Of a DNA stretch of 64,000 nucleotides, positions 8,718-34,024 are shown one piece after another. The notes beneath the pieces were generated by a model. It was not told the DNA's origin. It did not search any database and saw only the letters and a list, made by a program, of their open reading frames with translations. A program made the translations under genes and the position numbers. Within the stretch, counting starts at the first letter, position 1. Each line of letters begins with the position of its first letter. The stretch comes from Deltaproteobacteria bacterium (GTDB lineage: Bacteria; Myxococcota_A; Polyangia; Polyangiales; Houyiibacteriaceae), in assembly GCA_019313915.1 (NCBI GenBank), contig JAFDAJ010000002.1:31098-95097 (forward strand). The letters are read 5' to 3'.

Positions 8718-8753
8718 CCAGTGCCAGTGCCAGTGCCAGTGCCAGTGCCAGCG
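8718..8753. repeat. Hexanucleotide microsatellite (CCAGTG)x5 plus one imperfect unit (CCAGCG)
   Basis: Read directly: ccagtg ccagtg ccagtg ccagtg ccagtg ccagcg. It starts 1 nt after the TGA (8715-8717) of the cNMP-domain gene. Confidence 0.95.
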
Positions 8754-8859
8754 TGACATCTGATCGGAGCATTTCCAGCACTATGGCGATTTCATCGCTT
8801 CGATTTTTATTTTAATTTCCCTTTATTTTCAGTCTGTTAGGGAGGTGGAGAGTGTCCCC

Positions 8860-8887
8860 TTGTAACTGATTATTTGTTCAGTATACT
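8860..8887 (+). promoter_or_regulatory. Putative sigma70-type promoter with an embedded LexA-like (SOS) operator upstream of imuA
   Basis: TTGTAA (8860-8865), 16 nt, TATACT (8882-8887). The spacer is the palindrome CTGAttatttgtTCAG (8866-8881). It matches 14/17 of the CTRHAMRYBYGTTCAGS LexA box I recall for Myxococcus. It lies in the only AT-rich gap here, directly before the SOS mutasome operon. Confidence 0.5.
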
Positions 8888-8897
8888 GGGTGGTCCC

Positions 8898-9530
8898 ATG
8901 GGTGTTGGGACTGTCATTGAGATTGAGGAGCAGCGAGGTGGGGGGGAGGCTTTACCGCTTTCGGAGTTGTTGCCTCGGGGGCGCTTGGTTGAGGTGTCGG
9001 GAAAGCATGCTTGTGCGCGGACGACGACGGCTGTGTCGTGTGTGATCCGGGCGCAGGCGTGTGGTGAGCTCGTTGCTTGGGTGCAGCCCAGAGACGGCGC
9101 GTTGTTTCCTCCTGACCTCGATGCGGCGGGGGTCGATCTCGATTCGTTCATCGCGATTCAGGTACCGCGTCATGCAGGTCCGTTCGCGCTGGTTCGCGCC
9201 GCCGAGTGGCTTGCCCGTTCCGGCGCATTCGGGTTGACGGTCATCGACCTCACCGACGCCCTGCCGCCAGGTTCTTCGGTGAACTGGCAAGGCCGTCTTC
9301 AGGGTCTGTTGCGGCAATACGACGGTCGCATTCTCTTGCTCACTTCGAGCGCGTACGAAGATCCTTCTTCCGGTCCGTTGGTAGGCTTGCGTATCGAGCC
9401 CCGGCGCGGCGCTCTTCATGCTGATCGCTTCGAAGTTCACACGCGTGTTCTCAAAGACAAAATCGGCATCGCGATCGAGCTTTCACCATGGAAGCCTATC
9501 GCTCCAGCGGGGCTGCTAGGCGCATCATGA
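8898..9530 (+). CDS. imuA: ImuA (RecA/SulA-fold SOS mutagenesis protein)
   Basis: ORF 8874..9530, but 8874 lies inside the putative operator, so ATG 8898 is preferred. Contains ...RLVEVSGKHACARTTTAVSCVIRAQACGELVAWV.... First gene of the canonical imuA-imuB-dnaE2 order. Its stop overlaps the imuB ATG (ATGA). Confidence 0.75.
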   Translation: MGVGTVIEIEEQRGGGEALPLSELLPRGRLVEVSGKHACARTTTAVSCVIRAQACGELVAWVQPRDGALFPPDLDAAGVDLDSFIAIQVPRHAGPFALVRAAEWLARSGAFGLTVIDLTDALPPGSSVNWQGRLQGLLRQYDGRILLLTSSAYEDPSSGPLVGLRIEPRRGALHADRFEVHTRVLKDKIGIAIELSPWKPIAPAGLLGAS

Positions 9531-11035
9531 AGCGGGTGAGTTGCATTCTTTTGCCGATGCTTCCGTTGCAAATTCTGTTGCGCAAGAAGCCGCACTGGAA
9601 CGGCGTTCCCATTGCCGTCGTCGATGACGAAGGTCCCAATGGCCGCATCACGCATCTCAATACGCTCGCAAAAAAGAGCCGGCTCCGCATCGGCATGCGT
9701 CAGACCGTCGCGCGTGATCTTCTGCCAAACCTACACACTGCCGTCGTGTCACCCGAAGATGCCTCGGAAGTCAGCCGGGAGCTGGTCACTTCACTTCAAA
9801 CCTTCTCACCCCGGGTCGAAGCAGTCGATTACGCTGGCGCGTTCCACGTCGACCCCGAAGGCCTTCGGCGCCTCTACGGTGGTTACCACAGCTGGGCGAC
9901 GTCTATTCACCGGTATTTGCGGGCTCGTCACTGGCGAAACTCGGTGACTGTCGGCTTTCATCGCCATCGAGCGCTTGCGGTCGCGATGACGCACAGCGGG
10001 GTCACCATCCTGAAGAGCAACGACGAAGAGCGTGAACGATCAAACAAGACGTCCCTTCGTGAGTTCGATTTGCCCGGCGATCTTTGCGAAAGCTTGGGAG
10101 CATTGGGCATCGAAACATTGGGCGACTTTCTCGCCTTACCTACTGGCGAGCTTCACAGCCGTTTTGGCGCCAAGGCAAGCGCGCTCCACGACTCGTTTGC
10201 CGACGACATGCAACTCCCAATTCAGCCGCATGCCTTCGACGAGCCAGCGCGCATCTCGTTCCAGGTAGACCCGCCCGACGAAGACCAAAACCGCTTGCTC
10301 TTCGGGATCAAGGGCGCTCTGCACTCGTTGCTGCATCAAGTCCGGGCGCGCGGAGAAGCCATTCAATCTCTCGAACTTTCACTTCATTTGGAGCGCGCGC
10401 CTCTTCACCAAGAACACATCGAAACCGCATCACCGACGTTGGATTTGATGTTGCTGCTCGAGCTCATTCGTCTTCGTTTGGTTGGTCTTGTTGGTCTTGT
10501 TGGTCTGGGCGAGATGCGCTCGCAAGGCGCGGTCGAAGAAGTGGAGCTTCTTGCCAACACGGTGCGCGCACGCGCAGAACAGGTTGCGCTCCCTGGCCAT
10601 CAACCGCGTCACGACATGCGCGGTGCGCATCGAGCGCTCGACCGAATCCGCGCTGCATACGGCGAACACTCGGTAACCAGGGCTCGCGTGCGCGAGGCGC
10701 ATTTGCCGGAAGCTTCCTTCCGCTGGGAGCCAATCCAACATGCCCGGCTCGTCGAGCAACGGGCATCGCCTCCGATTTCTTCCATGATTAGAAGAGTTTA
10801 TGCCCGTCCGAAGCCTCTTCCTCTTCGCAAGCCGAAGGAGCCCGAGGCTGGCCCCTCGCTCGCTAAGAACCACGCGATCGAGCACATGTACGGGCCGTAC
10901 CGCGTGAGTGGTGGTTGGTGGAAACGCCTCGTCGAACGTGACTACTACTACGCTGAAACCGATCACGGTGACTTGCTCTGGCTCTTCTACGACCGCCCCC
11001 GGAAGCGGTGGTTCTTGCACGGGGTGCTCGATTGA
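9527..11035 (+). CDS. imuB: ImuB (Y-family DNA polymerase-like accessory protein)
   Basis: In-frame part of ORF 9488..11035; ATG 9527 overlaps the imuA stop. The N-terminus MKRVSCILLPMLPLQILLRKKPHWNGVPIAVVD is typical of the Y-family/ImuB fold. Its stop abuts the dnaE2 ATG. Confidence 0.8.
   Translation: MKRVSCILLPMLPLQILLRKKPHWNGVPIAVVDDEGPNGRITHLNTLAKKSRLRIGMRQTVARDLLPNLHTAVVSPEDASEVSRELVTSLQTFSPRVEAVDYAGAFHVDPEGLRRLYGGYHSWATSIHRYLRARHWRNSVTVGFHRHRALAVAMTHSGVTILKSNDEERERSNKTSLREFDLPGDLCESLGALGIETLGDFLALPTGELHSRFGAKASALHDSFADDMQLPIQPHAFDEPARISFQVDPPDEDQNRLLFGIKGALHSLLHQVRARGEAIQSLELSLHLERAPLHQEHIETASPTLDLMLLLELIRLRLVGLVGLVGLGEMRSQGAVEEVELLANTVRARAEQVALPGHQPRHDMRGAHRALDRIRAAYGEHSVTRARVREAHLPEASFRWEPIQHARLVEQRASPPISSMIRRVYARPKPLPLRKPKEPEAGPSLAKNHAIEHMYGPYRVSGGWWKRLVERDYYYAETDHGDLLWLFYDRPRKRWFLHGVLD
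10481..10507 (+). repeat. In-frame 9-bp tandem repeat (GTTGGTCTT)x3 inside imuB
   Basis: gttggtctt gttggtctt gttggtctg, encoding LVG-LVG-LVG (protein ...RLRLVGLVGLVGLGE...). Confidence 0.9.
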
Positions 11036-20034: not shown

Positions 20035-21123
20035 TTGTCGCACGGATGTGCAGCACGTTTTGGGGGGTCCTTTCGTCCTAAAATGTGGGTTTGGAGGGGC
20101 CCGGCAGATACGCTCTCGCCAGTGCTGCGTATCGCTCCGACAGTGCTTCTGGTCGCGCTGCTCTGGCCCCTGCTCAGCTCCTCTCAAGCGGAGCCCGCAG
20201 CGTTCTTCGGACAACCCGACGCCCATCGAATCGAGGCCTTGCGGACTTCGGAGATCGCCAAGGTGAAGAAGGGAAAGGGCGGCCGGAGCCTCGCCTTTCG
20301 GATCACGCTCGCGGATGGAACACGGGGCTATTTCAAACCCAAGCAAACCTTCTCGGCAGCCCATTGGTACTCCGAGGTAGCCGCTTACTACTTGGACCGC
20401 GAGCTCGGGTTGGGCCGGGTGCCACCGACGACTGGCCGCACGTTTGCATGGAGCGAGCTCCGAGCTGCGGCTGGCGACGACGACCGGGTGTCCGAGCTGG
20501 GAGTGGCGCCGGACGGCACCGTGAAAGGGGCGTTCATCTGGTGGATCCCCGAGTCATTGAAACGCGTTCGCATGGGACGGAAGTGGGAGCGTTGGGTGCG
20601 GGTTCAGAAGTCACTCCCGATTACGCCCTACCAACGGCCGGTGGACTATCGCGCCGACCTCAATCGGCGCCCCGGCATTCGCGAAGCCACCGACCCCAGC
20701 CGGGCTATCGCGAAGGAACCGGACATCGAGGGGAGGCCAGCCGAGCTATCCGACTTAATCATCTTCGACTACCTCACACAGAACGTCGACCGATGGGGTG
20801 GAGACTTCACCAACGTGCGTTCCCGCGGAGCAGGCGGACCGTTGATCTACTTGGACAACGGGGCTGGGTTCTGGCTTGGGGAACAGCGCTTGGGCTTGAT
20901 GGAGGCCCGGCTGAAGGCGCTTCAGCGATTCCGGCGATCGACGGTCGAGGCAGTTCGAAAGCTCGATATAGAACACTTTTCGTCCCGATTGCAGGGAGAT
21001 CCGCTCGCTCCCGTCTTGAACGAAAAGCAACTGGCTGGCCTCGATCAGCGCCGCCTCGCGGTCTTGCAGCACGTGGACGCGATGGTCGCGCGCTTCGGTG
21101 AGACCCGCGTCCTAGCGTGGTAG
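20035..21123 (+). CDS. Secreted Fam20/Four-jointed-like (protein-kinase-like fold) protein
   Basis: 362 aa (alternative ATG at 20083). Signal-like LRIAPTVLLVALLWPLLSSSQAEP. Blocks GYFKPKQ, HWYSEVAAYYLDRELGLGRVPPTTGR, IIFDYLTQNVDRWGG and LIYLDNGAGF resemble Fam20C hallmark blocks recalled from memory. Confidence 0.55.
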   Translation: MSHGCAARFGGSFRPKMWVWRGPADTLSPVLRIAPTVLLVALLWPLLSSSQAEPAAFFGQPDAHRIEALRTSEIAKVKKGKGGRSLAFRITLADGTRGYFKPKQTFSAAHWYSEVAAYYLDRELGLGRVPPTTGRTFAWSELRAAAGDDDRVSELGVAPDGTVKGAFIWWIPESLKRVRMGRKWERWVRVQKSLPITPYQRPVDYRADLNRRPGIREATDPSRAIAKEPDIEGRPAELSDLIIFDYLTQNVDRWGGDFTNVRSRGAGGPLIYLDNGAGFWLGEQRLGLMEARLKALQRFRRSTVEAVRKLDIEHFSSRLQGDPLAPVLNEKQLAGLDQRRLAVLQHVDAMVARFGETRVLAW

Positions 21124-21132
21124 GTTTCGCAA

Positions 21133-22131
21133 GTGAACGAACGACTTCGGCTTCCGGCGGAATGGGAGCCGCACAGCGCCTGCTGGCTCGCGTTTCCCTA
21201 CTTGCGGGAAGAGTGGCCGTTCAACCTTCCCGACGCGCAGCGTTCGATCGCTGCGCTGTCCCGCACCATCGCGGAAGTGGGCAACGAACCGGTGCAGCTC
21301 CTCGTGAAGAACGACGAGGTTGAAGAGCGTGCGCGTTCCTTGATCGGTGAGGTCTCCAACGTTCGATACGTGACGGCAGACTACGGTGACTGCTGGGTGC
21401 GCGACACAGCAGCAATGCTCGGGCACACGACAGATGGGGCGCTTGGTGGATTGTGTTTCGGGTTCAATGGCTGGGGCGGCAAATACCCGATCGCCTTCGA
21501 CGACACCGTGAGCGAGTGGCTAACGCATCGAATCGACGCCAGGCGATTCGAGTGTCCCGTCATCCTGGAGGGAGGTGCGCTCGAACCAGACGGCCAGGGA
21601 ACGTTCCTGACCACCACCTCTTGCGTCCTGAACGACAATCGAAATCCGGGGCTGACCCGCGAAGCCTTCGAGGAGGCGTTGAAAGCACTGATCTGCATGG
21701 ACCGCTTGGTTTGGCTCGACCGTGGACTGGCGCACGATCACACCGACGGGCACATCGACATGGTCGCCCGTTTTGTAGCGCCGAATACCGTGCTCTGCAT
21801 GAAGGCAACCGCCGGGGCGCCCAACGCGGCGGTCCTCGACTCCATCGAGCGAACGCTGCGCGCGAGTGGCCTGACCGTGCTCGAGCTCCCTGCGCCCTCG
21901 GCGATCTCGGCGCCCGACGGCGCGCCGCTACCGGCGAGCTACTGCAACTTTTACATCGCCAACGAGGCAGTGATCGTCCCCACGTATGGCATCCCCGAAG
22001 ACCAAACGGCCCTCGGCGAGCTCGCGAATGCGTTTCCCGGCCGCGAGGTGATCGGCTTGCCGGCTGCAGACCTGCTATGGGGAGGCGGAGCCTTTCACTG
22101 CGTCACCCAAGCTCAGCCCACCGCGCCATGA
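21133..22131 (+). CDS. aguA: Agmatine deiminase
   Basis: 332 aa, GTG start. Motifs LPAEWEPH, DCWVRD, TDGHIDM and C-terminal GGGAFHCVTQAQP (catalytic Cys). Confidence 0.9.
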   Translation: MNERLRLPAEWEPHSACWLAFPYLREEWPFNLPDAQRSIAALSRTIAEVGNEPVQLLVKNDEVEERARSLIGEVSNVRYVTADYGDCWVRDTAAMLGHTTDGALGGLCFGFNGWGGKYPIAFDDTVSEWLTHRIDARRFECPVILEGGALEPDGQGTFLTTTSCVLNDNRNPGLTREAFEEALKALICMDRLVWLDRGLAHDHTDGHIDMVARFVAPNTVLCMKATAGAPNAAVLDSIERTLRASGLTVLELPAPSAISAPDGAPLPASYCNFYIANEAVIVPTYGIPEDQTALGELANAFPGREVIGLPAADLLWGGGAFHCVTQAQPTAP

Positions 22132-23563: not shown

Positions 23564-24319
23564 CTAGCGTGCTTCTTCGAAGTGCTGGATCGCGGTTTCG
23601 ATCGCCGCGCCGAGTGCCTGGTTCACCAGCGTCGCAGTTGCGTCTTCCCCGCTTCGAAGCGCCTCGTAATAGCGCTGCCGTTCGGTCGCGTGGATGACTA
23701 CCGGCGGATAACCCGCGCGCATGAGGATGAGGTTCATCACCAGACGCGCCACCTTTCCGCTGTGTCGCGGGAACGGATAGATGTGCAGCAGCTGGTGGTG
23801 CACCCTGCTCGCGACGCGCACCGGATGCATCGTCTTCTTGGTCTCGGGGTCCGAGAGCCATTGAACGAGCTGACGCATGCGGTAGCTGATCTTGTCGGGC
23901 TGAGAAATCTCGTGAAAGTAAAGCCGGTGAAGCGGCATGTCCTTGCGGTACTTCGGAGGGCTCTTCCCTTCGAGCTCCTCAGGCGCGAGCTGGGCGAATA
24001 GCTTCTTGATCACGTCGAGGTTGAGGGTGAACCGTCGGCGCGAGGACATCTCACGAATCATCTCGATCGCGCCCATGTGATTCCGAACCTCGTCATAGAC
24101 GGGAATGAGGGAGGGATCGGTAACGACCTCGTCGTAGATGGCAGCCCTGAGCTCGTCCATCGAGTAGACGACACCCTCGAGCGCACTATCGTGATAGATC
24201 CACGCGATGTCGAAGCGCTCTTGATACTCTTGGCGCACCTGTGGGCTCGCCGAATCCAACAGCTCCTGAAGCTGGGCCACTCGCTCTTCTAAGCTTGGAC
24301 CTTGAAGCGCTTGAACCAA
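23564..24319 (-). CDS. Fic/DOC family protein with a degenerate active-site motif
   Basis: 251 aa. The Fic core region reads VHHQLLHIYPFPRHSGKVARLVMNLIL, where canonical Fic has HPFx[DE]GNGRxxR. The N-terminal DSALEG resembles the inhibitory [ST]xxxE[GN] helix motif. Confidence 0.7.
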   Translation of the reverse strand: MVQALQGPSLEERVAQLQELLDSASPQVRQEYQERFDIAWIYHDSALEGVVYSMDELRAAIYDEVVTDPSLIPVYDEVRNHMGAIEMIREMSSRRRFTLNLDVIKKLFAQLAPEELEGKSPPKYRKDMPLHRLYFHEISQPDKISYRMRQLVQWLSDPETKKTMHPVRVASRVHHQLLHIYPFPRHSGKVARLVMNLILMRAGYPPVVIHATERQRYYEALRSGEDATATLVNQALGAAIETAIQHFEEAR

Positions 24320-24417
24320 GGAATCTCCTCCAGCCTCGGGGGACCTACATCATCAGCCCCGCGCGGCCGGCGAAACTAACAGCGTGGCACGAGCCCGTCA
24401 ACCATGACCGATTTCGG

Positions 24418-24969
24418 CTAGTTAAGGGCTTCAGAAATGGCCCCTCGGAGCCGCATCTTGCTGGGAACCCCGGTGGAAGCCCACCGAACCAGACCGTCCT
24501 GGCCCACGATGATGACGGTCGGAAGCATCTGGATGGAGTATCGCCTCTGAACCGTCCCGGTGCGGTCATGGAGAGTTGGGAACTCGGACCCGAAAGCCGC
24601 GTGGGCGGCCTGCAGGCGCTGCCGGTCGATCGGCTCGACGTTCACCGCGTAGAACGCGACACCCTGCTCGGCAAACTCCTGGTGGAGGTCGTTGAGGATC
24701 GGTGTCGTCCGGCGGCACGCGCCACACCAACTCGCCCAGAAATCGAGGACCACCACCTGCCCCGCCATCTCTGAGAGCGCGACCTTCGTCGGCCCTCCGG
24801 GCTCGGCCCCCGCCGCAATGCTGAGGGTCAAGTCGGGCGCGCGTTGGCCCATCAGCGGAGATGCGTTGCCGCGAGTCATCCACGCGTAGAGCGCCACGAA
24901 TACCATCGCCGTCACCAACCAATGAATCCACGCGCGTGGCCTGGCGATTACAGCCTCAGACTCGGTCAT
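24418..24969 (-). CDS. Membrane-anchored thiol:disulfide oxidoreductase (TlpA/ResA-like)
   Basis: In-frame part of ORF 24418..25338; ATG 24969 overlaps the kinase stop by 4 nt. 183 aa. TM anchor WIHWLVTAMVFVALYAW and thioredoxin motif VVVLDFWASWCGACRR. Confidence 0.85.
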   Translation of the reverse strand: MTESEAVIARPRAWIHWLVTAMVFVALYAWMTRGNASPLMGQRAPDLTLSIAAGAEPGGPTKVALSEMAGQVVVLDFWASWCGACRRTTPILNDLHQEFAEQGVAFYAVNVEPIDRQRLQAAHAAFGSEFPTLHDRTGTVQRRYSIQMLPTVIIVGQDGLVRWASTGVPSKMRLRGAISEALN

Positions 24970-26480
24970 GGTGAGTCCATCAACGGAAGCTCGATGCTGA
25001 ACCGTGCCCCGCCTTCGGGCGCGCGATCGAGCCGAACCTGTCCGCCGTGCTCCAAGACCACTTTCTTCACGATCGCCAAGCCCAAGCCAGTGCCCTCCGT
25101 TTTGGTCGTGTAGTAGGGGTCGAAGACGCGATCCCAGTTTTCTCGGGAGATGCCGGGGCCATTGTCTCGGACCTCGATGACGCCGGAAGCCTCCGTCCGA
25201 TACGCCCGCACCAAGACCTCGCCGCCACCCGACGGGTGCGCCTCGTACACCGATTGAATCGCGTTTCGCAAAAGATTGTCGACACCACGCTTGAGCATCA
25301 TAGGGTCCATACGCACGCGGATGGGTTCCGTTGCACAAGTCACGCGTACTTCCACGGGAGCCGGGGTGCCGCGGCCCACGTCTTCGAGAATGGCAGGCAC
25401 CGCATCCTGAATGCCGTGCGCGAGGTCACAAAGGTCGGACGGAGAGAGATCGGCGCGCGGAAGCTTAGCAAAAGAGCTGAATTCGCCCACCAGGCGACGC
25501 AAGGTCGCGACCTCTTCCTCGATGATCGCGCGGGCATGCTCCAGCTTCTTCCGGTAGGCCTCATTTTCTCCATCGTACGTCTCGTCCAGCTCCTGAGCGG
25601 CGAGCTGGATCGGCGTGAGCGGGTTCTTGATCTCGTGGGCGAGCCGGCGCGCGAAGTCCTGCCAAGCGCTGATGCGCTGCATATACTCGATCCGCGCGCG
25701 CGAATCGCGCAAGTCGCGGACCATGTCGTTGAAGGCCTGTGTGAGCTCCGTGACCTCATCATTCGATCCGGTAGGCAGCGTCACGGTGAGGTCACCCGCA
25801 CCAACTTGACGAGAGGCTTCCGCCAGTGCGGTGACCCGGCGGGTCACGCGGCGCGACACGATCGCGCCGATCAAGAATGCAACCACGATCACGAGGAACG
25901 CCATGATGCCGAAGACCCATACATAAATGTCGGATACCGACGCGCTTTGACGCTGGAGTCGCGAGTACACGTCGGCCACTTCACCGGCGTCTTGCAGACG
26001 CTCGAAGTACGCCTCGGGAACGGCCACCTCGACCGCGACCCGCAGCTTCATTCCCCCTGCGTCGACGTCCCGATCGCGAGTCGTGGTCCGCATCACGGCG
26101 CCGGACGGATCAGGTTCACGAGATACGCGCGCGATCTCTGCGTTGGCTTCGTCGGTGACGCGAATGCCCCGCACCAGGTCGTACCGTTGTAAGAGCTCCT
26201 GCAGCCGCCCCTCGATTCTCGACGTGTTGCGACGCGCGGTAACCTCGGCAGCGACCGCCCACTCGACAGCGTCCGCGACTTGCTCCGACCCTGACCGAAG
26301 CGCCATGATCTGCCCGCGGCGAGCCTCCACGCCACGAACCAACTCCGCACCGAACCGTTCGTTCACGCCGACGCGATACACCTCCCGCACCGCCCCCCCA
26401 GCCAGAAAAATGCTGCCCCCGAGGGTGAGAAACACCGACAGACCGATCGCGAATAGGATCTTTCGCTCGAATCGGCTCAT
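24966..26480 (-). CDS. Sensor histidine kinase (2 TM, periplasmic domain, HAMP, HisKA, HATPase; NtrY-like)
   Basis: 504 aa. TM1 ILFAIGLSVFLTLGGSIFLAG, a ~170-aa periplasmic part, TM2 plus HAMP (VGAGDLTVTLPTGSNDEVTELTQAFNDMV). H-box LAHEIKNPLTPIQL; N/G boxes LLRNAIQS, DNGPGI, GTGLGLAIV. Confidence 0.9.
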   Translation of the reverse strand: MSRFERKILFAIGLSVFLTLGGSIFLAGGAVREVYRVGVNERFGAELVRGVEARRGQIMALRSGSEQVADAVEWAVAAEVTARRNTSRIEGRLQELLQRYDLVRGIRVTDEANAEIARVSREPDPSGAVMRTTTRDRDVDAGGMKLRVAVEVAVPEAYFERLQDAGEVADVYSRLQRQSASVSDIYVWVFGIMAFLVIVVAFLIGAIVSRRVTRRVTALAEASRQVGAGDLTVTLPTGSNDEVTELTQAFNDMVRDLRDSRARIEYMQRISAWQDFARRLAHEIKNPLTPIQLAAQELDETYDGENEAYRKKLEHARAIIEEEVATLRRLVGEFSSFAKLPRADLSPSDLCDLAHGIQDAVPAILEDVGRGTPAPVEVRVTCATEPIRVRMDPMMLKRGVDNLLRNAIQSVYEAHPSGGGEVLVRAYRTEASGVIEVRDNGPGISRENWDRVFDPYYTTKTEGTGLGLAIVKKVVLEHGGQVRLDRAPEGGARFSIELPLMDSP

Positions 26481-27070
26481 TCGGGCACCTTCAGATATTC
26501 GCTACGGAACTCGATGGTGCGTTCGGATCGGCAAATCCGGCGGCGAACGATGTTCACGGTGATCGGTCCCACCGGGTCATTCCCCGAAGTCGGCCGAATC
26601 AGCTCGCTACACTGTTTCTTCGAGATCGGGTTGAACTCGGCCTTGACAGCGAAGTACATCTCCCGCCCCTTGTGCGGCAGGTAGCTCTTTGGCTCGCCCG
26701 CGAACAACCCCTCGACGGCCAGGCACCGGTTGAGCACTTGCTCGAGCGTCTTCAACCGTTCGGTTTGCTGACCGATGCGAACGAGATAGCCGTCATCCCA
26801 AAGGTCGAGCGTCGCGTCGCAACTGAATTGGCGCTGGGCCACTCGCTGGTTGGACCCCTTGAGGTGGGATCCGACCGTCACGACGAGTCGCTTGCGCAAC
26901 CCGCTCGAAAGCTCCTGTCGCACGCGTTCGTCTGCAAGGTCCTTCGCGGAAAAAGACACCTTTGGCGCACCACGGGACCACGTGACCCCGAAATCGCGCA
27001 GGGGCAGTTGCGACTGGGCGTACGTAACCGTCGCGGTCAGCAAGACCAGTGCTGCGAGCCAATATCTCAC
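26477..27070 (-). CDS. Secreted/periplasmic protein of unknown function (possibly DUF4390-like)
   Basis: 197 aa. Signal peptide MRYWLAALVLLTATVTYAQS. 4-nt overlaps with both neighbours. The pattern ...CDATLDLWDDGYLVRIGQQTERLKTLEQVLNRCL reminds me of the DUF4390 proteins found next to NtrY-like kinases. That family call is weak. Confidence 0.6.
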   Translation of the reverse strand: MRYWLAALVLLTATVTYAQSQLPLRDFGVTWSRGAPKVSFSAKDLADERVRQELSSGLRKRLVVTVGSHLKGSNQRVAQRQFSCDATLDLWDDGYLVRIGQQTERLKTLEQVLNRCLAVEGLFAGEPKSYLPHKGREMYFAVKAEFNPISKKQCSELIRPTSGNDPVGPITVNIVRRRICRSERTIEFRSEYLKVPE

Positions 27071-28683
27071 AGCCGTATGAACCCCACGAGCGTCGAGAAG
27101 CCCACTTGGAACACGCCGACCCGGGTGTCGAATCGAAACCCAAAGTCGAACGTCAGGTCGAGCGGAAAACGTGAAAGGCCCGTGTATCCGCTCACGCCAG
27201 TGCGCGGATCTCGAAGGTCCGCAAGCCCGTACAATCCGATCAGCGTGTAGATATTAACTTCGCGCAAGCCCCGGTCGCGCACGCGCTCGTAGACTGGCAC
27301 GTTGTACCCAATGTCGATACGCCACGCGAGCTCACCGAGGTTGTTGTTCTCGATCGAGGTGCCTAGAAGATTGGGCGGAGGACGCGCATCGAGCTGCATC
27401 TCGAGGAACCGAGAAGGGATCAGATCCGTCAGGTCTGAGATGTGAAAGAGGTAGAAGAACGGCGTGTTGCCGAACGCCGCTCCGCCGAACGCGCCAAGTC
27501 GAATCGTGTGGTTCCAAGGCAACCGCCACCACCGTCGCACCCATGCTTCGAGCTGGAGGAAGTCGTAGTCACTGCCGAGGAAACGCGTACCGGCGGTGAC
27601 AACGCCACGAAAGAGCACACCCTCCTTGGTGATGCCCGGGTCGTCGCGCTTGTCGAACACCAACGCGAACCGTAGGGAGGAAACGAAGCTCCGGCCGTCT
27701 TGAATCGCGAAATCGACCGGGGCGATCTCGTTGCCTTGGCGCTCACTCGCGGCTTCAGGACGGTCGAGAACGCTGACGATGTCGCCAAGCCAATCCAGGC
27801 TGTAGCGGAGCTTACTGGTGAAGTCCTTCCCGGTGCCGACCATGAATCCGCCGCGTCGGTATCGAACGACAGCGTTCGGAACGATCGAGGTGCCCGGGCA
27901 AGTCGGCGCCCCGCAAGGCACGCTCACCAAGGGGCTGTTTCCGTAGAACTCCCGGCCATTGAGAAAGAACGTTCCAAACCGGAGGTCGTATTCACTCTTG
28001 ACCAGCTTGGGATAGCGGAGATCCAAGCGCCCGCCCTGTTGAAACTCGCTCAGCAGCCCGGTCGCGGAGAGCCGTATGCCCCGACCGGCAAGATTGGTTT
28101 CGGTGACCTTGAAGCCGAGCCAAGGGAAGAGCGTGCGCCCGCGGTCGGTGGTCTTGCCAACGCCCTCGGACAAGCCCGCGACCAATTGCTCGATCACGAC
28201 CGTGTTGCGCTCCCTGACTTCGACGACGAGCACCACGTACCCGCGCTCGGCGCCACGCTCGAGACGAATGTCGACGCTGTGGAACCATCCTGTTCCCATC
28301 AATCGCCACTCGGTGGCCACCAACTCTGGTGATTCCGGATCGAGGAAGTCGCCCTGCTTCAATGGAATGAAGTTGCGAACCGTGCGCGCTTTGGTTCGAT
28401 CGTTGCCGCTGACGACGATGCCCTCGAGCACATAACGGACCTGCGACGAGATCTGATCGGGACGCCGACCCTGGCTCGCGACTCCGTACCGGTCGCGGAA
28501 CTCCTCTTCCTCGCCCGCGTCGTCGGCATCGACGTCCTGTGTGGGGATCGCGACCGGATCGCCAGGGCGGTATGGCTCCCCTTTGGGGTCGGAATCCTGT
28601 GCACTTGCCGTTGCGGCCCAACCAAGAACCAGCAGCGGGATGAGGCTCAGAAGCCGGCGTCTCGGTCGCAAGCGCGGGCTCAC
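27067..28683 (-). CDS. Omp85/BamA-TamA family outer-membrane beta-barrel with a single POTRA-like domain
   Basis: 538 aa. Signal LLSLIPLLVLGWAATASAQD. POTRA-like VRYVLEGIVVSGNDRTKARTVRNFIPLKQGDFLD. Long alternating beta-strand C-terminal half ending ...VGVFQVGFSTLVGFIRL. Confidence 0.75.
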   Translation of the reverse strand: MSPRLRPRRRLLSLIPLLVLGWAATASAQDSDPKGEPYRPGDPVAIPTQDVDADDAGEEEEFRDRYGVASQGRRPDQISSQVRYVLEGIVVSGNDRTKARTVRNFIPLKQGDFLDPESPELVATEWRLMGTGWFHSVDIRLERGAERGYVVLVVEVRERNTVVIEQLVAGLSEGVGKTTDRGRTLFPWLGFKVTETNLAGRGIRLSATGLLSEFQQGGRLDLRYPKLVKSEYDLRFGTFFLNGREFYGNSPLVSVPCGAPTCPGTSIVPNAVVRYRRGGFMVGTGKDFTSKLRYSLDWLGDIVSVLDRPEAASERQGNEIAPVDFAIQDGRSFVSSLRFALVFDKRDDPGITKEGVLFRGVVTAGTRFLGSDYDFLQLEAWVRRWWRLPWNHTIRLGAFGGAAFGNTPFFYLFHISDLTDLIPSRFLEMQLDARPPPNLLGTSIENNNLGELAWRIDIGYNVPVYERVRDRGLREVNIYTLIGLYGLADLRDPRTGVSGYTGLSRFPLDLTFDFGFRFDTRVGVFQVGFSTLVGFIRL

Positions 28684-28693
28684 GACGGCCAGA

Positions 28694-29608
28694 CTACTCC
28701 AGCGGAGGGAGCCACGCGAGAAGCCAAAGGCACCCTGCCACCACCACGAAGACTGCGCTCACCCATCCGAGCGTGCGCAAGAAACCAATTTGCCTTCCGT
28801 CGTCCTTCGACTTCACGGGGCTACTTGTAGCAGATTCTTGTGGGAAGGAGGGAGAATAGTCGAGGGCATCCCATGACCCCGGCCGCTCCGGGAGGTCGTC
28901 GTCGCCGGGTCGACGAATGATGCGGATCGTGGCGTCGTCATCGCCCTCTTCCATCCGGGGGCGGAGCCCCGAAACCGGCGTGGCGTCCGTGCGCCCCAGG
29001 TCAGCGAGGCCCTCTTCAAAAGCCTGCAAAAGCGGAAGCGCGGTTGGGTTCTTGGGAGGCGCTTGGGATGTCTTGTCTCGAAGTGACGGCGGCAAGGTTT
29101 CCCGAGGCGGCGGTACGGCGTCGACGCGAAACGTGCCCTCGGTCCACTCGAGCGCAGTGACGAAGTCCGCCGCAGTCCCGCCGTCAATGCTGACGTCACT
29201 GAGCTCGCCTTTCTCGTAGTACCCGATCGCAAGCCGCCCGCGCAGCTCGAGCAGGAGCCTCCCCGTGAGGCCCGCGTTTTCGCAGTAACGCATCAAATCG
29301 GCGGGAGGATGCACCGCAAGTGAGCCACGTCGAGTCGTGTCGGTGCCGCGCGAGACCGGCAGGTGTGGGAGTTTCGGATAGACCGCAAACTCACCGTCTC
29401 GCAGGGAGAGCAGGACCTCGAGCGCGCGCTCTTCGTCCGCTGTGGTGGCAGCGTCGGCGACCTGACCGTGCACGAGGCGGATTGCGCCCGACCCGGACGT
29501 GCTCTGAAACGCAAGCACACCGGTCGTGCCGAGCTCTTCGAGACCTCCGAGCAAGTCCTCGACGCCTTCAGCCGGGATCGTTCCTTCGAACACCGCCTCT
29601 GCAACCAT
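28694..29608 (-). CDS. DUF4388 (PATAN-like) domain protein with Pro-rich linker and C-terminal TM anchor
   Basis: 304 aa. N-terminus EGTIPAEGVEDLLGGLEELGTTGVLAFQSTSGSGAIRLVHGQVADA and a second similar module (LMRYCENAGLTGRLLLELRGRLAIGYYEKGEL). C-terminal TM LGWVSAVFVVVAGCLWLLAWL. Confidence 0.65.
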   Translation of the reverse strand: MVAEAVFEGTIPAEGVEDLLGGLEELGTTGVLAFQSTSGSGAIRLVHGQVADAATTADEERALEVLLSLRDGEFAVYPKLPHLPVSRGTDTTRRGSLAVHPPADLMRYCENAGLTGRLLLELRGRLAIGYYEKGELSDVSIDGGTAADFVTALEWTEGTFRVDAVPPPRETLPPSLRDKTSQAPPKNPTALPLLQAFEEGLADLGRTDATPVSGLRPRMEEGDDDATIRIIRRPGDDDLPERPGSWDALDYSPSFPQESATSSPVKSKDDGRQIGFLRTLGWVSAVFVVVAGCLWLLAWLPPLE

Positions 29609-29697
29609 GACTCATGCAAGTGGTTCTGCGCGCCCGAATTGTCAAGCTGTTTGCGCGTTGCCCGGCATCGCACACAGGTCCAGAATTTCCAGGAAAT

Positions 29698-30969
29698 CTA
29701 AGGGAAAATCCCACGTTCCTCGTACGAGGTTGCAAGGCTTTCGAGCGCAAGCGCGTATGCAGCAATGCGCGCATTGACCTTCTTTTCCGCGGCGTAGAAC
29801 ATCGTGCGTTGATACGCGCGACGCATCATGTGGAGCAGCCGCCGCTGCACTTCTTCAGCGTCCCAGTGCTCGCTGTTTCGATTCTGCACCCACTCGTAGT
29901 AGCTCACGGTCACGCCTCCCGAGTTGGCCAAGATGTCGGGGATGACGGGGATACCCCGATCGGCCAGCACCGCCCCGCCTGCCGGATTGATCGGTCCGTT
30001 TGCGCCTTCTGCTATGAGCCGGACATCGAGCCTGACCGCTTCCTTCTCACCGACTTGGTTCTGGAGAGCCGCTGGGATGAACAGGTCTGCCTTGGTTTCG
30101 AAGAACTCGTCCCGCGTGATCTTGTCGCCACGCGGGTAGCCATCGATCGATCCGTTGACCCGCACGTAGTCCTGAAGCTTGTGCGCATTGAAGCCTTCAT
30201 CGTTGCGATGGTAGCCCGTGTGGTCTCCCGTCGCGATCGTAGACACGCCGAGCTTGGAGAGCAGAAGCGCAGTGTTCGAGCCTACGTTGCCGAACCCCTG
30301 AACGATGGCGGTGGCGCCTTCGAGGTCGAAGCGGGCTTCCCTCGCCCATTCCTTGATGCAGTGCACCACGCCCTGACCGGTGGCCGCCTCACGCCCCTCC
30401 GATCCACCCGCATTGATGGTCTTCCCCGTCACAACGGCGCGGTGGTCGTTCTTCTCGTAGGTCGGCCCGGTGTTGATGTATGTGTCCATCATCCACACCA
30501 TCGTTTGCGCGTTGGTCCCCATGTCAGGCGCCGGAATGTCGTGTGACGGACCGATGTTGCTACCAAGGGCGTGAGTGAATCGTCTCGTAATGCGTTGAAG
30601 CTCCTCGTGGGAATGCTCGCGCGGGTTGAACTTGACGCCGCCCTTGCCGCCGCCGAACGGAACGCCCAGCAGTGCACACTTCCAGGTCATCTGAGTTGCG
30701 AGCGCCTTGAGCTCGTTGAGACTGACTTGCTCGTGATATCTCATGCCGCCCTTGTAGGGGCCCATCACGTTGTTGTGCTGAATGCGGTAGCCCTTGAACA
30801 AACGGGTTTCGCCGCCGTCCATTCGCACTGGGAAATGGACGATCAGCTCGTTCTTCGGCTCGGCGAGGATTCGCCGCACATGAGCCGGAAGGCCTGTGAG
30901 CTCGGCGGCCTCCTCCATGTAGCCCTGCACGACCTCGAAAAACGAAAACTCATCTGCGCCGCTCGACAT
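29698..30969 (-). CDS. gdhA: Glutamate dehydrogenase (Glu/Leu/Phe/Val dehydrogenase family)
   Basis: 423 aa. Shows FKGYRIQHNNVMGPYKGGMRYH, catalytic-Lys region GVPFGGGKGGV and NAD(P) fold IVQGFGNVG. Confidence 0.93.
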   Translation of the reverse strand: MSSGADEFSFFEVVQGYMEEAAELTGLPAHVRRILAEPKNELIVHFPVRMDGGETRLFKGYRIQHNNVMGPYKGGMRYHEQVSLNELKALATQMTWKCALLGVPFGGGKGGVKFNPREHSHEELQRITRRFTHALGSNIGPSHDIPAPDMGTNAQTMVWMMDTYINTGPTYEKNDHRAVVTGKTINAGGSEGREAATGQGVVHCIKEWAREARFDLEGATAIVQGFGNVGSNTALLLSKLGVSTIATGDHTGYHRNDEGFNAHKLQDYVRVNGSIDGYPRGDKITRDEFFETKADLFIPAALQNQVGEKEAVRLDVRLIAEGANGPINPAGGAVLADRGIPVIPDILANSGGVTVSYYEWVQNRNSEHWDAEEVQRRLLHMMRRAYQRTMFYAAEKKVNARIAAYALALESLATSYEERGIFP

Positions 30970-31190
30970 GTTCTTACGATGCTACCGGAGCGTTCGCCGA
31001 CCACCAAGATCGGCGCAAATCTTGCGCATCGGCGACAAGGGGCGAAAGAACAGCGCGCCCTGTAGAAAACGTTTCTCAACAGAGATGATGTCCTTGTTTT
31101 TCTAGGCTTTGCGGAGTTAGAGTCACGTCGACCGGGTGGCCGGGAAACGTGCCACCGTGACCTTTGCTTTCGAACAGCGAGGAGGATCCG

Positions 31191-32321
31191 ATGGATGAAC
31201 CGGGAAGCGACTTTCGTCGTGAGCTAGAAGCGCGCGGCGTATCACGCCGCGAGTTCATGGGCTTCTGCTCTGCAATGGCAGTGATGTTTGGTTTGCCGAA
31301 GGGCGCGACGGCGATGATCGCCGAGGCACTCGAAAACAAACCCAAGCCAACATTGGTGTGGCTCAACTTCCAAGATTGCGCGGGCAACACCGAATCGTTC
31401 CTGCGGGCCAGCAAGCCGACTGCCGCAGAGGTGATCCTCGATCTGATCTCGATCGACTATCACGAGGTGATCATGGCGGCGGCCGGTCACCAAGCGGAGG
31501 AGAACCTCCGCTCGGTGGTGGAAAACCAGAAGGGTGCATACATCGCAGTCGTCGAGGGCTCGATCCCGACCGGAGCGAACGGCGCGTACTGCACCGTGGG
31601 CGGCAGGTCAGCGTCCCACATAGCCAACGAAGTTTGTGGCAATGCACTGGCGACGATTGCCGTCGGCACCTGTGCTTCGTTTGGCGGAATCCCCGCGGCC
31701 TCGCCGAATCCGACGGGCGCGCTTGGCGTTTCCGATGCGGTCCCAGGGATCAAGACCCTGATCAACCTTTCGGCCTGTCCGGTGAACGCGCAGAACCTCA
31801 CCGCAACGCTGGTCTACTTCCTGACCTACGGAAGGTTCCCAGCTCTCGACAAGCTGAATCGCCCGCTTTTTGCCTATGGAAAGTCGATTCACGACAACTG
31901 CGAACGGCGCGCGCACTACGACGCGGGGCAGTACGTCGAGCAATGGGGCGACGAAGCGCATCGCGACGGACAGTGTCTTTACAAGATGGGGTGCAAGGGC
32001 CCCGTCTCGTTCCAGAACTGCCCCAACATCGGTTGGAACGACAACACGAGCTGGCCGGTCGCATGCGGCCACGGTTGCATCGGCTGCGCAGAGCCGGACT
32101 TCTGGGACAAGATGACGCCGTTCTACGCGCACCTTCCAGGCTTCCCCGGCTTCGGCAAAGGTTCGGACATCGACAAGGTCGGCTTCTGGGCGACCGTTGG
32201 TGTCACCACCGCCTTCGCAACCCACACGTTGGTACACCTTGGAAAGAAGCTCGTTGGAACGGGTGCGGATCACGCGCCAGAAAGCCCGCCTGAGCGGACC
32301 GATGAAGGAGGCGCAGAATGA
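31191..32321 (+). CDS. hupS: [NiFe] uptake hydrogenase small subunit (group 1, Tat-exported, membrane-anchored)
   Basis: In-frame part of ORF 31164..32321; ATG 31191 is preceded by GAGGAGGA. Tat motif SRREFMGF. Aligns along its whole length with E. coli HyaA as recalled (LENKPKPTLVWLNFQDCAGNTESFLRA, GTCASFGGIPAA, HDNCERRAHYDAG, CLYKMGCKGP, GHGCIGCAEPDFWD). C-terminal TM VGFWATVGVTTAFATHTLVHL. Confidence 0.92.
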   Translation: MDEPGSDFRRELEARGVSRREFMGFCSAMAVMFGLPKGATAMIAEALENKPKPTLVWLNFQDCAGNTESFLRASKPTAAEVILDLISIDYHEVIMAAAGHQAEENLRSVVENQKGAYIAVVEGSIPTGANGAYCTVGGRSASHIANEVCGNALATIAVGTCASFGGIPAASPNPTGALGVSDAVPGIKTLINLSACPVNAQNLTATLVYFLTYGRFPALDKLNRPLFAYGKSIHDNCERRAHYDAGQYVEQWGDEAHRDGQCLYKMGCKGPVSFQNCPNIGWNDNTSWPVACGHGCIGCAEPDFWDKMTPFYAHLPGFPGFGKGSDIDKVGFWATVGVTTAFATHTLVHLGKKLVGTGADHAPESPPERTDEGGAE

Positions 32322-34024
32322 CTCATATCGTTGTCGATCCAGTGACCCGCATTGAAGGCCACTTGCGCATTGAAGCAGAAATCGACGGGGGCAAAGTCGC
32401 AGACGCTTGGTCTTCGTCGACGATGTTCCGCGGGATCGAAATCATTCTCCAAGGTCGAGACCCGCGTGATGCCTGGGCCTTCACCCAACGCATCTGCGGC
32501 GTCTGCACGACGGTGCACGCCATCGCTTCGATTCGCGCAGTGGAAGATGCGATCGGCGCGAAACCGCCGCCCAATGCACGAATCCTTCGCAACCTGATCA
32601 TCGCGTCCCAGTGCATCCAGGACCACGTGATCCATTTCTATCACCTGCACGCGCTCGATTGGGTCGACATCGTGTCGGCGCTCGACGCCGATCCGAAGGA
32701 GACCGCGGCACTCGCACAATCGATTTCGGATTGGCCGCTGTCGAGTGCGACGTACTTCAAGGGCATTCAGGACCGAGTGAAAGGGCTGGTCGAGCGTGGG
32801 CAGCTTGGGCCGTTTGCCAACGCATACTGGGGCCATTCGGCGTACAAGCTCCCTCCGGCTGCGAATCTGATGGCGCTGGCGCACTATCTCGAGGCACTCG
32901 AGTGGCAGCGCGAGTTCATCAAGATGCACGCCATTCTCGGCGGGAAGAACCCTCACCTGCAGAGCTTCTTGGTCGGCGGTATGGCGACTCCGGTCGACCC
33001 GGACGCACAGGCTTCGCTCAACATTCACACGATCGCGCACTTCAAGAAGCTCATCGCGGGCGCGCAGGAGTTCGTGAGCAAGGTGTACATTCCAGATGTG
33101 CTTGCGGTCGCCTCGTTCTACAAAGACTGGGCTGGATACGGCGCAGGTGTAGGCAACTACATGGTGTACGGCGAGTACCCGCTCGACGACGAAGCCGATC
33201 CAGAGCTCTACCTTCCGTCGGGTATCATTCGCGCCCGCGACCTCTCGAAGGTGGAAGAGTTCGATCCGTCGAAGATCACCGAGCAGATCACGCACTCCTG
33301 GTACGATTACGCAGGCGGAGCAGACGCAGCGCTTCATCCGTCCGAGGGCGAAACCAACCCGAATTACACCGGACCGGAGCCACCCTACGAACGATTGGAC
33401 ACCGGGAAGAAGTACTCCTGGCTGAAGTCGCCACGTTACGACGGCGCGCCGATGGAAGTCGGGCCTTTATCACGGATGTTGGTCTCCTACGTTCGCGGTC
33501 ACGAGAAAGTGCAGGGCCTCGTCAATCACGTGCTCAAGACACTCGGGGTTGGGCCCGAAGCCTTGTTCTCGACGCTTGGACGAGTTGCGGCGCGCGCAAT
33601 TGAAACGCAGTTGTTGGTCGACAAGATCGGCGACTGGGTCGACGAGCTGGCCGACAACATGGGCAAGGGCGAGCTTCGCATCCACGACAACAGCAAATGG
33701 GAGCCAGAGAGCTGGCCGGCCGACTGCATGGGAGCGGGTTTCCACGAAGCGCCGCGCGGCGCGCTTGGCCACTGGGTCCACGTCAAAGACGGCAAGATCG
33801 CGCGCTACCAATGTGTGGTTCCGAGCACCTGGAACGCCGGACCGCGGGACTCGGGTGACGTACCCGGCCCGTACGAGGCAGCCCTGGTCGGGACCCCGGT
33901 GGCGGACCCCGAGCAACCGATTGAGATCCTGAGAACGGTTCATTCTTTCGACCCGTGTATGGCTTGCGCTGTGCACGTCGTCGAACCTGGAGGGCGCGAG
34001 ATCACTCGCGTGAAGGCGCGATGA
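32318..34024 (+). CDS. hupL: [NiFe] hydrogenase large subunit
   Basis: 568 aa. N-terminal VDPVTRIEGHLRIE and RICGVCTTVH (L1/L2 Ni-Fe ligand motifs). C-terminal DPCMACAVH followed by a 15-aa extension (protease-cleaved tail). Confidence 0.95.
   Translation: MTHIVVDPVTRIEGHLRIEAEIDGGKVADAWSSSTMFRGIEIILQGRDPRDAWAFTQRICGVCTTVHAIASIRAVEDAIGAKPPPNARILRNLIIASQCIQDHVIHFYHLHALDWVDIVSALDADPKETAALAQSISDWPLSSATYFKGIQDRVKGLVERGQLGPFANAYWGHSAYKLPPAANLMALAHYLEALEWQREFIKMHAILGGKNPHLQSFLVGGMATPVDPDAQASLNIHTIAHFKKLIAGAQEFVSKVYIPDVLAVASFYKDWAGYGAGVGNYMVYGEYPLDDEADPELYLPSGIIRARDLSKVEEFDPSKITEQITHSWYDYAGGADAALHPSEGETNPNYTGPEPPYERLDTGKKYSWLKSPRYDGAPMEVGPLSRMLVSYVRGHEKVQGLVNHVLKTLGVGPEALFSTLGRVAARAIETQLLVDKIGDWVDELADNMGKGELRIHDNSKWEPESWPADCMGAGFHEAPRGALGHWVHVKDGKIARYQCVVPSTWNAGPRDSGDVPGPYEAALVGTPVADPEQPIEILRTVHSFDPCMACAVHVVEPGGREITRVKAR

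Follow-up and report, generated by a model that had tools for sequence, protein, structure and literature searches.

A DUF4390-like gene between a one-POTRA Omp85 barrel gene and a sensor kinase gene in a five-gene envelope locus of the Polyangiales

The gene plrP of Bordetella, which codes for a periplasmic protein of the DUF4390 family, overlaps that of the sensor kinase PlrS by 4 bp (Wolber et al., J Bacteriol 2026, PMC13001219). PlrS, which is needed for the survival of Bordetella in the lung, is an NtrY-family kinase with PDC, HAMP, PAS and HK domains, an HEIKN site and a bifunctional kinase/phosphatase signature, and PlrP behaves genetically as a third component that restrains the phosphatase activity of PlrS via its PDC domain; the genetics of PlrP are the sole functional handle on DUF4390 (PMC13001219). 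In beta- and gamma-proteobacteria, DUF4390 genes always colocalize with ntrYX homologs, as found in a survey restricted to proteobacteria (PMC13001219). Here we analyzed a 64-kb stretch of contig JAFDAJ010000002.1 (assembly GCA_019313915.1) from an uncultured bacterium of the Polyangiales, hereafter called the window, and in particular five open reading frames on its minus strand, labeled G1 to G5 in their 5' to 3' operon order. In this locus a DUF4390-like gene (G3) stands between the gene of an outer-membrane barrel of the Omp85 family (G2) and that of a sensor histidine kinase (G4).

Barrels of this kind are a second point of contact with published work, since myxobacteria carry several diverged BamA paralogs to which neither a partner nor a function has been assigned (PMC4104836). 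We report that the barrel gene and the DUF4390-like gene form a pair that is kept far beyond the locus studied here, and that the kinase gene, together with the gene of a TlpA-like reductase (G5), joins this pair in one lineage.

The pair of Omp85 and DUF4390-like genes

To assign G3 by homology, profile comparisons with relatives were required. No match of G3 was obtained in Pfam (E ≤ 10) or NCBIfam, and 13 close orthologs were likewise without a DUF4390 match at E ≤ 10. An exhaustive profile search with G3 yielded 146 cluster representatives, 77 of which are full-length, and 58 of these 77 match the DUF4390 model PF14334 (best E value 2.6e-8), mostly just under its gathering score of 27 bits. 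In the well-populated sister group of the G3 clade, termed A4 here and including Labilithrix and Pendulispora brunnea, 19 of 20 members match PF14334. An hhalign comparison of the G3-clade alignment (A1) with A4 gave a probability of 98.9% and an E value of 2.4e-17 over 190 columns, and precomputed PF14334 annotation is present on some G3 relatives. Because both the relatives of G3 and the A4 group match PF14334, and because A1 and A4 align in this way, G3 is, as judged from profiles, a remote relative of the DUF4390 (PlrP) family. A preliminary description of the locus, made from the sequence alone, had called this protein "possibly DUF4390-like", and the guess turns out to be right at the level of remote homology.

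G3 carries a signal peptide with predicted cleavage after AYA and without a lipobox, i.e., of the signal peptidase I type. Within its own clade, where identities are 75-99%, four cysteines are invariant. Two of them, C84 and C116, are kept in 66-68 of the 77 family members; the other two, C154 and C180, are clade-specific and confined to the nine closest members of the 77-sequence alignment. The AlphaFold2 model of G3 has a predicted local distance difference test score (pLDDT) of 76, which falls below 50 for residues 155-179 in the C-terminal third, and a fold search of the model against the PDB gave no match at E ≤ 0.001. A LolA/LolB/LprG-like fold was considered and rejected, the template modeling scores of 0.12-0.15 being meaningless. 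Apparent fusions of G3 relatives to extracellular contractile injection system (eCIS), NAD_binding_7 and DnaJ sequences were judged likely read-throughs of gene calling.

G2 matches the Pfam models of Omp85 (PF01103; 41.3 versus a cutoff of 24) and POTRA (24.3 versus 21.3). A signal peptide and an acidic low-complexity stretch are followed by one POTRA domain at about residues 84-159 and a barrel at residues 162-538. Its AlphaFold2 model (pLDDT 77.5) shows one POTRA domain and about 16 barrel strands and is closest to BamA and TamA in Foldseek (E ~2e-19, probability 1.00); the fold matches include 6t1w, a structure of BamA with RcsF, and the TamA POTRA is the sole match in the PDB at the level of sequence. 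G2 is not the housekeeping BamA, because it scores 72.6 bits with the BamA model TIGR03303 against a cutoff of 297; it also has one POTRA domain versus the five of BamA. A long conserved loop of G2 carries the sequence IPSRFLEM, represented by an IPSR motif in the kinase-linked branch described below, at a place where the VRG(F/Y) motif of loop L6 would presumably be expected. A loop of G2 also holds the cysteine pair C257/C262 (PCGAPTCP), for which the pattern in the branch is PCxxPxCP with C257 invariant. Exactly two cysteines, in the same loop, are found in 30 of 30 Omp85 orthologs of the kinase/TlpA-linked branch, in contrast to the stand-alone Omp85 partners, 28 of 38 of which have no cysteine.

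The surroundings of the DUF4390-like genes were compared in a metagenome set of 80 A4 loci, of which 69 are informative upstream (at least 300 nt) and 60 have enough downstream sequence. In all 69 informative loci, an abutting Omp85 gene on the same strand lies 5' of the DUF4390-like gene, and the genes 3' of the pair are heterogeneous. Pairs without a kinase and with a 4-nt overlap are also present in the cultured Pendulispora brunnea (GST-Omp85-G3like-UvrC) and in the distant locus L048 (Redoxin-HIT-Omp85-G3like).

Closer to the window, the order GDH-G1-G2-G3-G4-G5-Fic, in which GDH denotes glutamate dehydrogenase and Fic a Fic-domain gene, is kept in 37 of 37 related genomes of uncultured Polyangiales, counted at the species level (60-95% identity), which are too close to be decisive on order conservation. 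The order is also kept in distant loci with G3 26-35% and Omp85 44-51% identical, though their upstream flanks differ. The series Omp85-G3like-HK-TlpA-Fic, with HK for histidine kinase, follows a Rieske gene in L042, adh_short in L044, GDH in L051 and a PatA_N gene in L049; L050 reads PatA_N-Omp85-G3like-HK, followed by a gap and Fic. In L041 we find G3like-HK-TlpA and in L045 a 519-aa protein gene followed by G3like-HK. The conservation of the whole five-gene order, proposed as a check in the preliminary description, holds among the 37 close genomes but not further out, where L042, L044 and L051, three of the five distant loci, lack G1 and the pair alone is invariant.

Because the pairing was found in 69 of 69 loci and in Pendulispora brunnea while the kinase drops out further away, we conclude that the BamA/TamA-like barrel with its single POTRA domain and the DUF4390-like protein together make up the invariant core. 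The kinase and the TlpA-like reductase are a lineage-specific extension of this pair in the Polyangiales lineage of the window.

Two further features were observed around stand-alone pairs. In L048 (positions 6368-9660), which is very distant (G3-like protein at ~20% identity), the pair lies two genes downstream of a lipoprotein-type redoxin, without a kinase. A cytoplasmic GST_N (Pfam) gene stands directly 5' of the pair in 16 of the 31 metagenome loci with enough upstream sequence for this count (e.g., L059, L062 and L087) and in L052 (7606-8253); this gene of glutathione S-transferase (GST) fold may encode a putative zeta-class enzyme of the maleylacetoacetate-isomerase type. As a periplasmic redox partner it was rejected, being without a signal peptide.

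Layout of the locus and its kinase, reductase and accessory genes

The five genes are co-oriented, with a spacing of 10 nt between G1 and G2 and 4-nt overlaps at G2/G3, G3/G4 and G4/G5, and the base composition of the block is uniform with its flanks (Table 1). All coordinates of the preliminary description were reproduced, and its domain calls (DUF4388, Omp85 with a single POTRA, HAMP kinase, WCGAC thioredoxin) agree with the Pfam matches. Its topology stood as well for the C-terminal transmembrane (TM) segment of G1, the anchor of G5 and the presence of a periplasmic domain in G4, the length of which is about 160 residues by hydropathy and not about 170.

Table 1. Genes and putative regulatory elements of the locus (window coordinates).
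Feature	Position	Strand	Size	Description
G1	28694-29608	-	304 aa	Cytoplasmic DUF4388/PATAN protein with C-terminal tail anchor; variable accessory gene
G2	27067-28683	-	538 aa	BamA/TamA-type Omp85 outer-membrane barrel, one POTRA
G3	26477-27070	-	197 aa	Secreted periplasmic protein, remote DUF4390/PlrP relative
G4	24966-26480	-	504 aa	Inner-membrane sensor histidine kinase
G5	24418-24969	-	183 aa	Membrane-anchored, periplasmic TlpA/ResA-like thioredoxin-fold reductase; start at ATGA overlap
Fic-domain gene	23564-24319	-		Co-oriented neighbor 3' of G5, gap 98 nt
Glutamate dehydrogenase (GDH)	29698-30969			Co-oriented neighbor 5' of G1, gap 89 nt
CCTGGAAATTCTGGA direct-repeat motif	29679-29693	-		Just 3' of GDH stop codon; conserved in 12 of 13 aligned relatives
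CTTGACAA -35-like box	29636-29646	-		About 30 nt 5' of G1 start; invariant in 13 aligned intergenic regions
TTGACG-N17-TAGTTT promoter-like element	24369-24403	-		G5-Fic gap; conserved across 17 relatives

In the gap between GDH and G1, the conserved repeat TCTGGAAATTCTGGA lies 5' of the CTTGACAA box. This box is a probable operon promoter, and the direct-repeat motif upstream of it is a candidate regulator-binding site, for which no recurrence beyond chance was seen in the window. The element in the G5-Fic gap, which a consensus scan had missed, has an invariant TTGAC and a conserved -10-like box among the 17 relatives, which suggests that the Fic gene has a promoter of its own. A terminator scan found no intrinsic terminator-like sites in the intergenic gaps, and an Rfam scan of 22.5-31.5 kb returned a single sub-threshold chance match. 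The promoter-like boxes and the lack of a hairpin in the gaps would fit one G1-G5 transcript with Fic able to start separately, and they agree with the operon boundaries drawn in the preliminary description. The combined evidence supports the view that G1-G5 behave as one tightly coupled unit.

G4 matches HAMP, HisKA and HATPase_c in Pfam. A first TM segment (residues 8-26) is followed by the periplasmic domain (27-188), a second TM segment (189-207), HAMP (208-259) and the ATPase domain (392-500). The H-box reads HEIKN (residues 282-286), and the N, G1 and G2 boxes of the transmitter are present (DNGPG, GTGLGL). The periplasmic domain contains no cysteine. There is no PAS domain: HAMP ends at residue 259, HisKA starts at residue 273, and Pfam gives no PAS match. 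The transmitter is closest to ZraS and AtoS-type kinases, with ZraS as the best PDB sequence match, and a tblastn search of plasmids with G4 for annotated NtrY genes returned generic kinases alone, at about 27% identity.

No receiver domain was detected in any frame of the window, either by phmmer or by a hidden Markov model (HMM) built from six seeds, which found receivers in control loci, and no receiver gene lies inside the operon in any related locus examined; that a response regulator is absent nearby had been claimed before and is borne out for the 64 kb. A gene of about 370 codons, whose product has a degenerate domain resembling a receiver and matches PilZ weakly, is found near the cluster in three loci (L044:12644-13780, L042:13963-15072 and L051:16000-17118). 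It was rejected as a general partner, having no homolog in the window and an acceptor aspartate that is not conserved between the loci.

G5 matches AhpC-TSA, Redoxin and Thioredoxin in Pfam, carries WCGAC at residues 81-85 and has an N-terminal anchor at residues 13-31 by hydropathy. It stays under all curated cutoffs of the named subfamilies, with scores of 85.4 versus 170 for ResA, 44 versus 230 for TlpA and 41.3 versus 123 for DsbE. A TlpA-like gene lies directly 3' of the kinase gene in L041, L042, L044, L049 and L051. Since G2 and G3 carry conserved cysteine pairs and the periplasmic domain of G4 has none, these two proteins are the obvious candidate substrates of G5, a proposal that rests on this correlation.

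G1 matches PF14332 (DUF4388/PatA_N) with 45 bits against a gathering score of 25 (E 1.3e-11). The domain covers about residues 13-82 and extends to about residue 165, followed by a disordered linker and a C-terminal TM segment at residues 280-298 (hydropathy), the protein ending in LPPLE. In L049 and L050, the homologs encoded 5' of the Omp85 gene are 38-46% identical in the N-terminal domain and have the same C-terminal tail. With its absence from several distant loci, G1 is an optional accessory gene that comes and goes.

Possible functions of the locus and its neighbors

The start/stop overlaps, the kept gene order, the DUF4390 homology and the PlrP/PlrS precedent, together with the HEIKN site, the invariable pairing in the A4 loci, the BamA/TamA fold of G2, the cysteine correlation and the promoter-like boxes, lead us to propose, tentatively and short of an even chance, that the locus is a trans-envelope sensor made of a barrel, a periplasmic adaptor, a kinase and a control of thiol state. 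The sensing of outer-membrane assembly or of redox state is plausible. From gene structure, homologies, topologies, conservation and co-occurrence statistics we infer the following physical interactions, direction of signaling and role of the TlpA-like protein. The G2 barrel would partner physically with the secreted G3, their genes being translationally coupled and the pair widespread in myxobacteria, and in the Polyangiales lineage of the window this pair would have been joined in one operon with G4, presumably a bifunctional kinase/phosphatase with an HEIKN site like that of PlrS. G3 would bind the periplasmic domain of G4 and set its kinase/phosphatase balance, as proposed for PlrP. How far G3 is available for this role would be governed by its contact with the POTRA domain or the barrel of G2, by which it would report the state of the outer membrane. 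A second determinant would be the thiol state of C84/C116 in G3 and C257/C262 in G2, which G5 would control. The signal would exit via a response regulator encoded elsewhere, and the tail-anchored PATAN protein G1 may act as an optional cytoplasmic accessory.

Several observations weigh against such a sensor. G3 has no direct Pfam match, and most of its relatives stay just under the DUF4390 cutoff. G4 has neither a PAS domain nor an adjacent NtrX-type regulator, both typical of NtrYX, and could be an unrelated kinase with a HAMP domain whose H-box is a common one. The cysteine loop of G2 may face the periplasm or the outside. A kinase gene is downstream of the pair in none of the 60 A4 loci of the Labilithrix/Pendulispora group with enough downstream sequence, and the primary job of a pair that occurs without a kinase in most Myxococcota may not be signaling. 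Finally, all kinase-linked loci also share a wider synteny (DnaJ, CdsA, GDH ... Fic, ThiE, agmatine deiminase, Fam20C), so that part of the conservation is inheritance.

The kinase-less pairs, in these 60 loci as well as in L048, are what would be expected if G2 and G3 were solely a machine of outer-membrane biogenesis or transport, with the kinase and the TlpA-like protein no more than co-transcribed, the former sensing something else via its own periplasmic domain and the latter serving in general periplasmic thiol reduction or in oxidative folding of the barrel. The BamA/TamA insertase fold of G2 and the diverged BamA paralogs known in myxobacteria (PMC4104836) fit the same picture. Though this is the main alternative, we consider it somewhat unlikely that biogenesis or transport is the whole function: the 4-nt overlap of G3 and G4 persists down to about 30% G3 identity and mirrors that of plrP and plrS, an experimentally linked DUF4390-kinase pair, and the proteobacterial DUF4390 genes always occur with an NtrY-type kinase and no Omp85 gene, which gives the family a documented role in signaling.

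G3 could also be cargo of G2, exported or displayed on the surface in a manner resembling two-partner secretion (TPS), with the kinase regulating or monitoring the export. This appears improbable, as the best folds for G2 are the BamA/TamA insertases, no TpsB translocator is present among the 50 best Foldseek matches listed, and G2 has one POTRA domain and not the two of TpsB proteins. G3, moreover, is small and globular with disulfide-type cysteine pairs and has no TPS-like domain by Pfam, and its relative PlrP is inferred to be periplasmic (PMC13001219). Export would agree with the fact that a barrel gene and the gene of a small secreted protein are strictly adjacent and translationally coupled, and with the low model confidence in the C-terminal third of G3 (pLDDT < 50, residues 155-179), as would be expected if this part became ordered on binding.

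We give equally little credence to the idea that the genes are independent housekeeping genes without a common function, held together by slow genome rearrangement. The overlaps are maintained across 30-50% protein identity, and the upstream neighbors vary (Rieske, adh_short, GDH, PatA_N, a resistance-nodulation-division pump) while the order Omp85-G3-kinase-TlpA stays; the independent pairing in 69 of 69 loci and the independent DUF4390-kinase precedent likewise argue for function. What speaks for slow rearrangement is that GDH upstream and Fic, ThiE, CN-hydrolase, agmatine deiminase and Fam20C downstream are also conserved in distant loci, and that the loci with a kinase all belong to metagenome-assembled genomes of a single order-level group.

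The Fic-domain gene downstream of G5 follows the TlpA-like gene in L042, L044, L049 and L051, and ThiE is also near in L042, L049 and L051. Because ThiE stays close too, a functional link of Fic cannot be separated from inherited synteny, and its membership in the envelope system is uncertain. The Fic protein, which is cytoplasmic, scores 44.2 with the Pfam Fic model against a cutoff of 24, and FICD is its best PDB match (1e-21), with the motif aligned. The catalytic consensus of Fic AMP-transferases is HxFx(D/E)GNGRxxR. In the protein of the window, the active-site motif YPFPRHSGKVAR (residues 181-192) aligns to HPFIDGNGRTSR of FICD with the catalytic His replaced by Tyr, and the motif is degenerate in 8 of 8 aligned orthologs, with Tyr in seven (YPF) and Ser in L044. 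The protein keeps SALEG (residues 45-49), which resembles the inhibitory helix of FICD. Judged by its active-site motif, it is probably a non-AMPylating pseudo-enzyme. That the gene marks a toxin or anti-phage defense module of the SoFic or PDC-S04 type, as PADLOC Fic models matching at 1e-14 to 1e-16 might indicate, is most improbable and was rejected: these matches reflect a generic resemblance among Fic domains, none of the orthologs retains the catalytic His, the protein is vertically conserved in a stable chromosomal context and, with 84-95% identity, is among the best-conserved proteins of the region, and none of the five operon proteins matches a PADLOC defense model.

Outside GDH and Fic, the locus is flanked by a NiFe-hydrogenase operon in divergent orientation and by a convergent group of genes with ThiE and agmatine deiminase. 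The hydrogenase set, placed by mapping from L038:1-5880 and transcribed away from the cluster on its GDH side, begins at about 31164-34024 (+) of the window and continues onward, with genes for the small and large subunits, cytochrome b, HycI protease, a c-type cytochrome and HypF. On the other side, a bacterial protein with the Pfam domain of the secretory-pathway kinase Fam20C is encoded at about 20083-21123 (+), mapped from L038:15948-16988. Its gene adjoins those of an agmatine deiminase (PAD_porph, 21133-22131) and a CN-hydrolase, and this position is kept in L044, L050 and L051.

Comparison with known systems

The preliminary description did not recognize the gene combination as a described system. 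For the DUF4390 and kinase genes this has to be revised, as they parallel PlrP-PlrS (PMC13001219); the judgment stands for the five-gene arrangement as such. No description was found in the literature of a five-gene arrangement with a PAS-less HEIKN kinase, a TlpA-like protein and no regulator, nor of a strict Omp85/DUF4390-like pairing in Myxococcota, within a full-text literature on "DUF4390" that is sparse. Each part of the locus is of a known kind, and the pairing of DUF4390 and kinase has its precedent in 2026.

With regard to the barrel, G2 resembles the BamA-like Omp85 proteins with one to three POTRA domains (Heinz and Lithgow, 2014, PMC4104836) in its 16-strand barrel of the BamA/TamA type, its reduced number of POTRA domains and its occurrence in Myxococcota. 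It differs from these paralogs in the strict pairing of the barrel gene with a DUF4390-like gene and, in the kinase-linked branch, in the cysteine pair of the loop and the IPSR motif. G3 would thus be the first candidate partner for one unexplained group of myxobacterial BamA paralogs. Like G2-G3, TamA-TamB comprises an Omp85 barrel gene followed by the co-transcribed gene of a periplasm-exposed partner. However, TamA has three POTRA domains and G2 one, and TamB is a very large, inner-membrane-anchored DUF490/AsmA-like protein, whereas G3 is a soluble protein of 197 residues from another family. G5 shares the N-terminal anchor, the thioredoxin fold and the WCxxC site with the TlpA/ResA/CcmG reductases, but scores far under the ResA, TlpA and DsbE cutoffs and lies in a context without genes for cytochrome c maturation or copper chaperones.

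The reporting of envelope state that we propose for G2-G4 has functional counterparts in Enterobacteria. In RcsF-BamA/OMP-IgaA-RcsCDB (OMP, outer-membrane protein) and in NlpE-CpxA, a small secreted protein is distributed between two places, a barrel or assembly machine of the outer membrane and a signaling protein of the inner membrane; for NlpE, disulfide status is a further input. These systems follow the same logic but are unrelated to ours in sequence and fold: RcsF and NlpE are lipoproteins, whereas G3 is of the signal peptidase I type, and neither has its gene in one operon with those of a dedicated barrel and a reductase. The arrangement in the window points to a route, not studied so far, by which signals from the outer membrane or of redox origin would reach the cell interior.

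The closest parallel is PlrP-PlrS-PlrR. As with G3 and G4, a secreted protein of the DUF4390 superfamily with about 200 residues is encoded directly 5' of the kinase with a 4-nt overlap, and PlrS, like G4, has a periplasmic domain between two TM segments, a HAMP domain and an HEIKN site. Unlike PlrP, G3 is too diverged for a direct PF14334 match, and unlike PlrS-PlrR, G4 has no PAS domain and no regulator of the NtrX/PlrR type, adjacent or within the 64 kb, and rsmB is not upstream. In contrast to the proteobacterial clusters as reported, an Omp85 gene is located 5' of the DUF4390-like gene and a TlpA-like gene 3' of the kinase gene, and the host phylum is Myxococcota and not, as for PlrP-PlrS, that of the proteobacteria. 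The invariable pairing with a barrel in a second phylum, together with the translational coupling to a PlrS-like kinase and a periplasmic reductase in one lineage, leads to a testable hypothesis on the binding targets and the signal of DUF4390 proteins, and the presence of the two-gene core in the cultured Pendulispora brunnea makes experiments feasible.

More generally, DUF4390 proteins might be periplasmic couplers of Omp85 barrels to NtrY-type inner-membrane kinases, a generalization that we consider doubtful at present. If true, it would amount to an unrecognized signaling route from the outer to the inner membrane and would explain in concrete terms how PlrP works in Bordetella, the thiol state being a second input via TlpA. 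All three partners would then be present together in the locus described here, while proteobacteria would have kept DUF4390 with the kinase and most Myxococcota the barrel with DUF4390.

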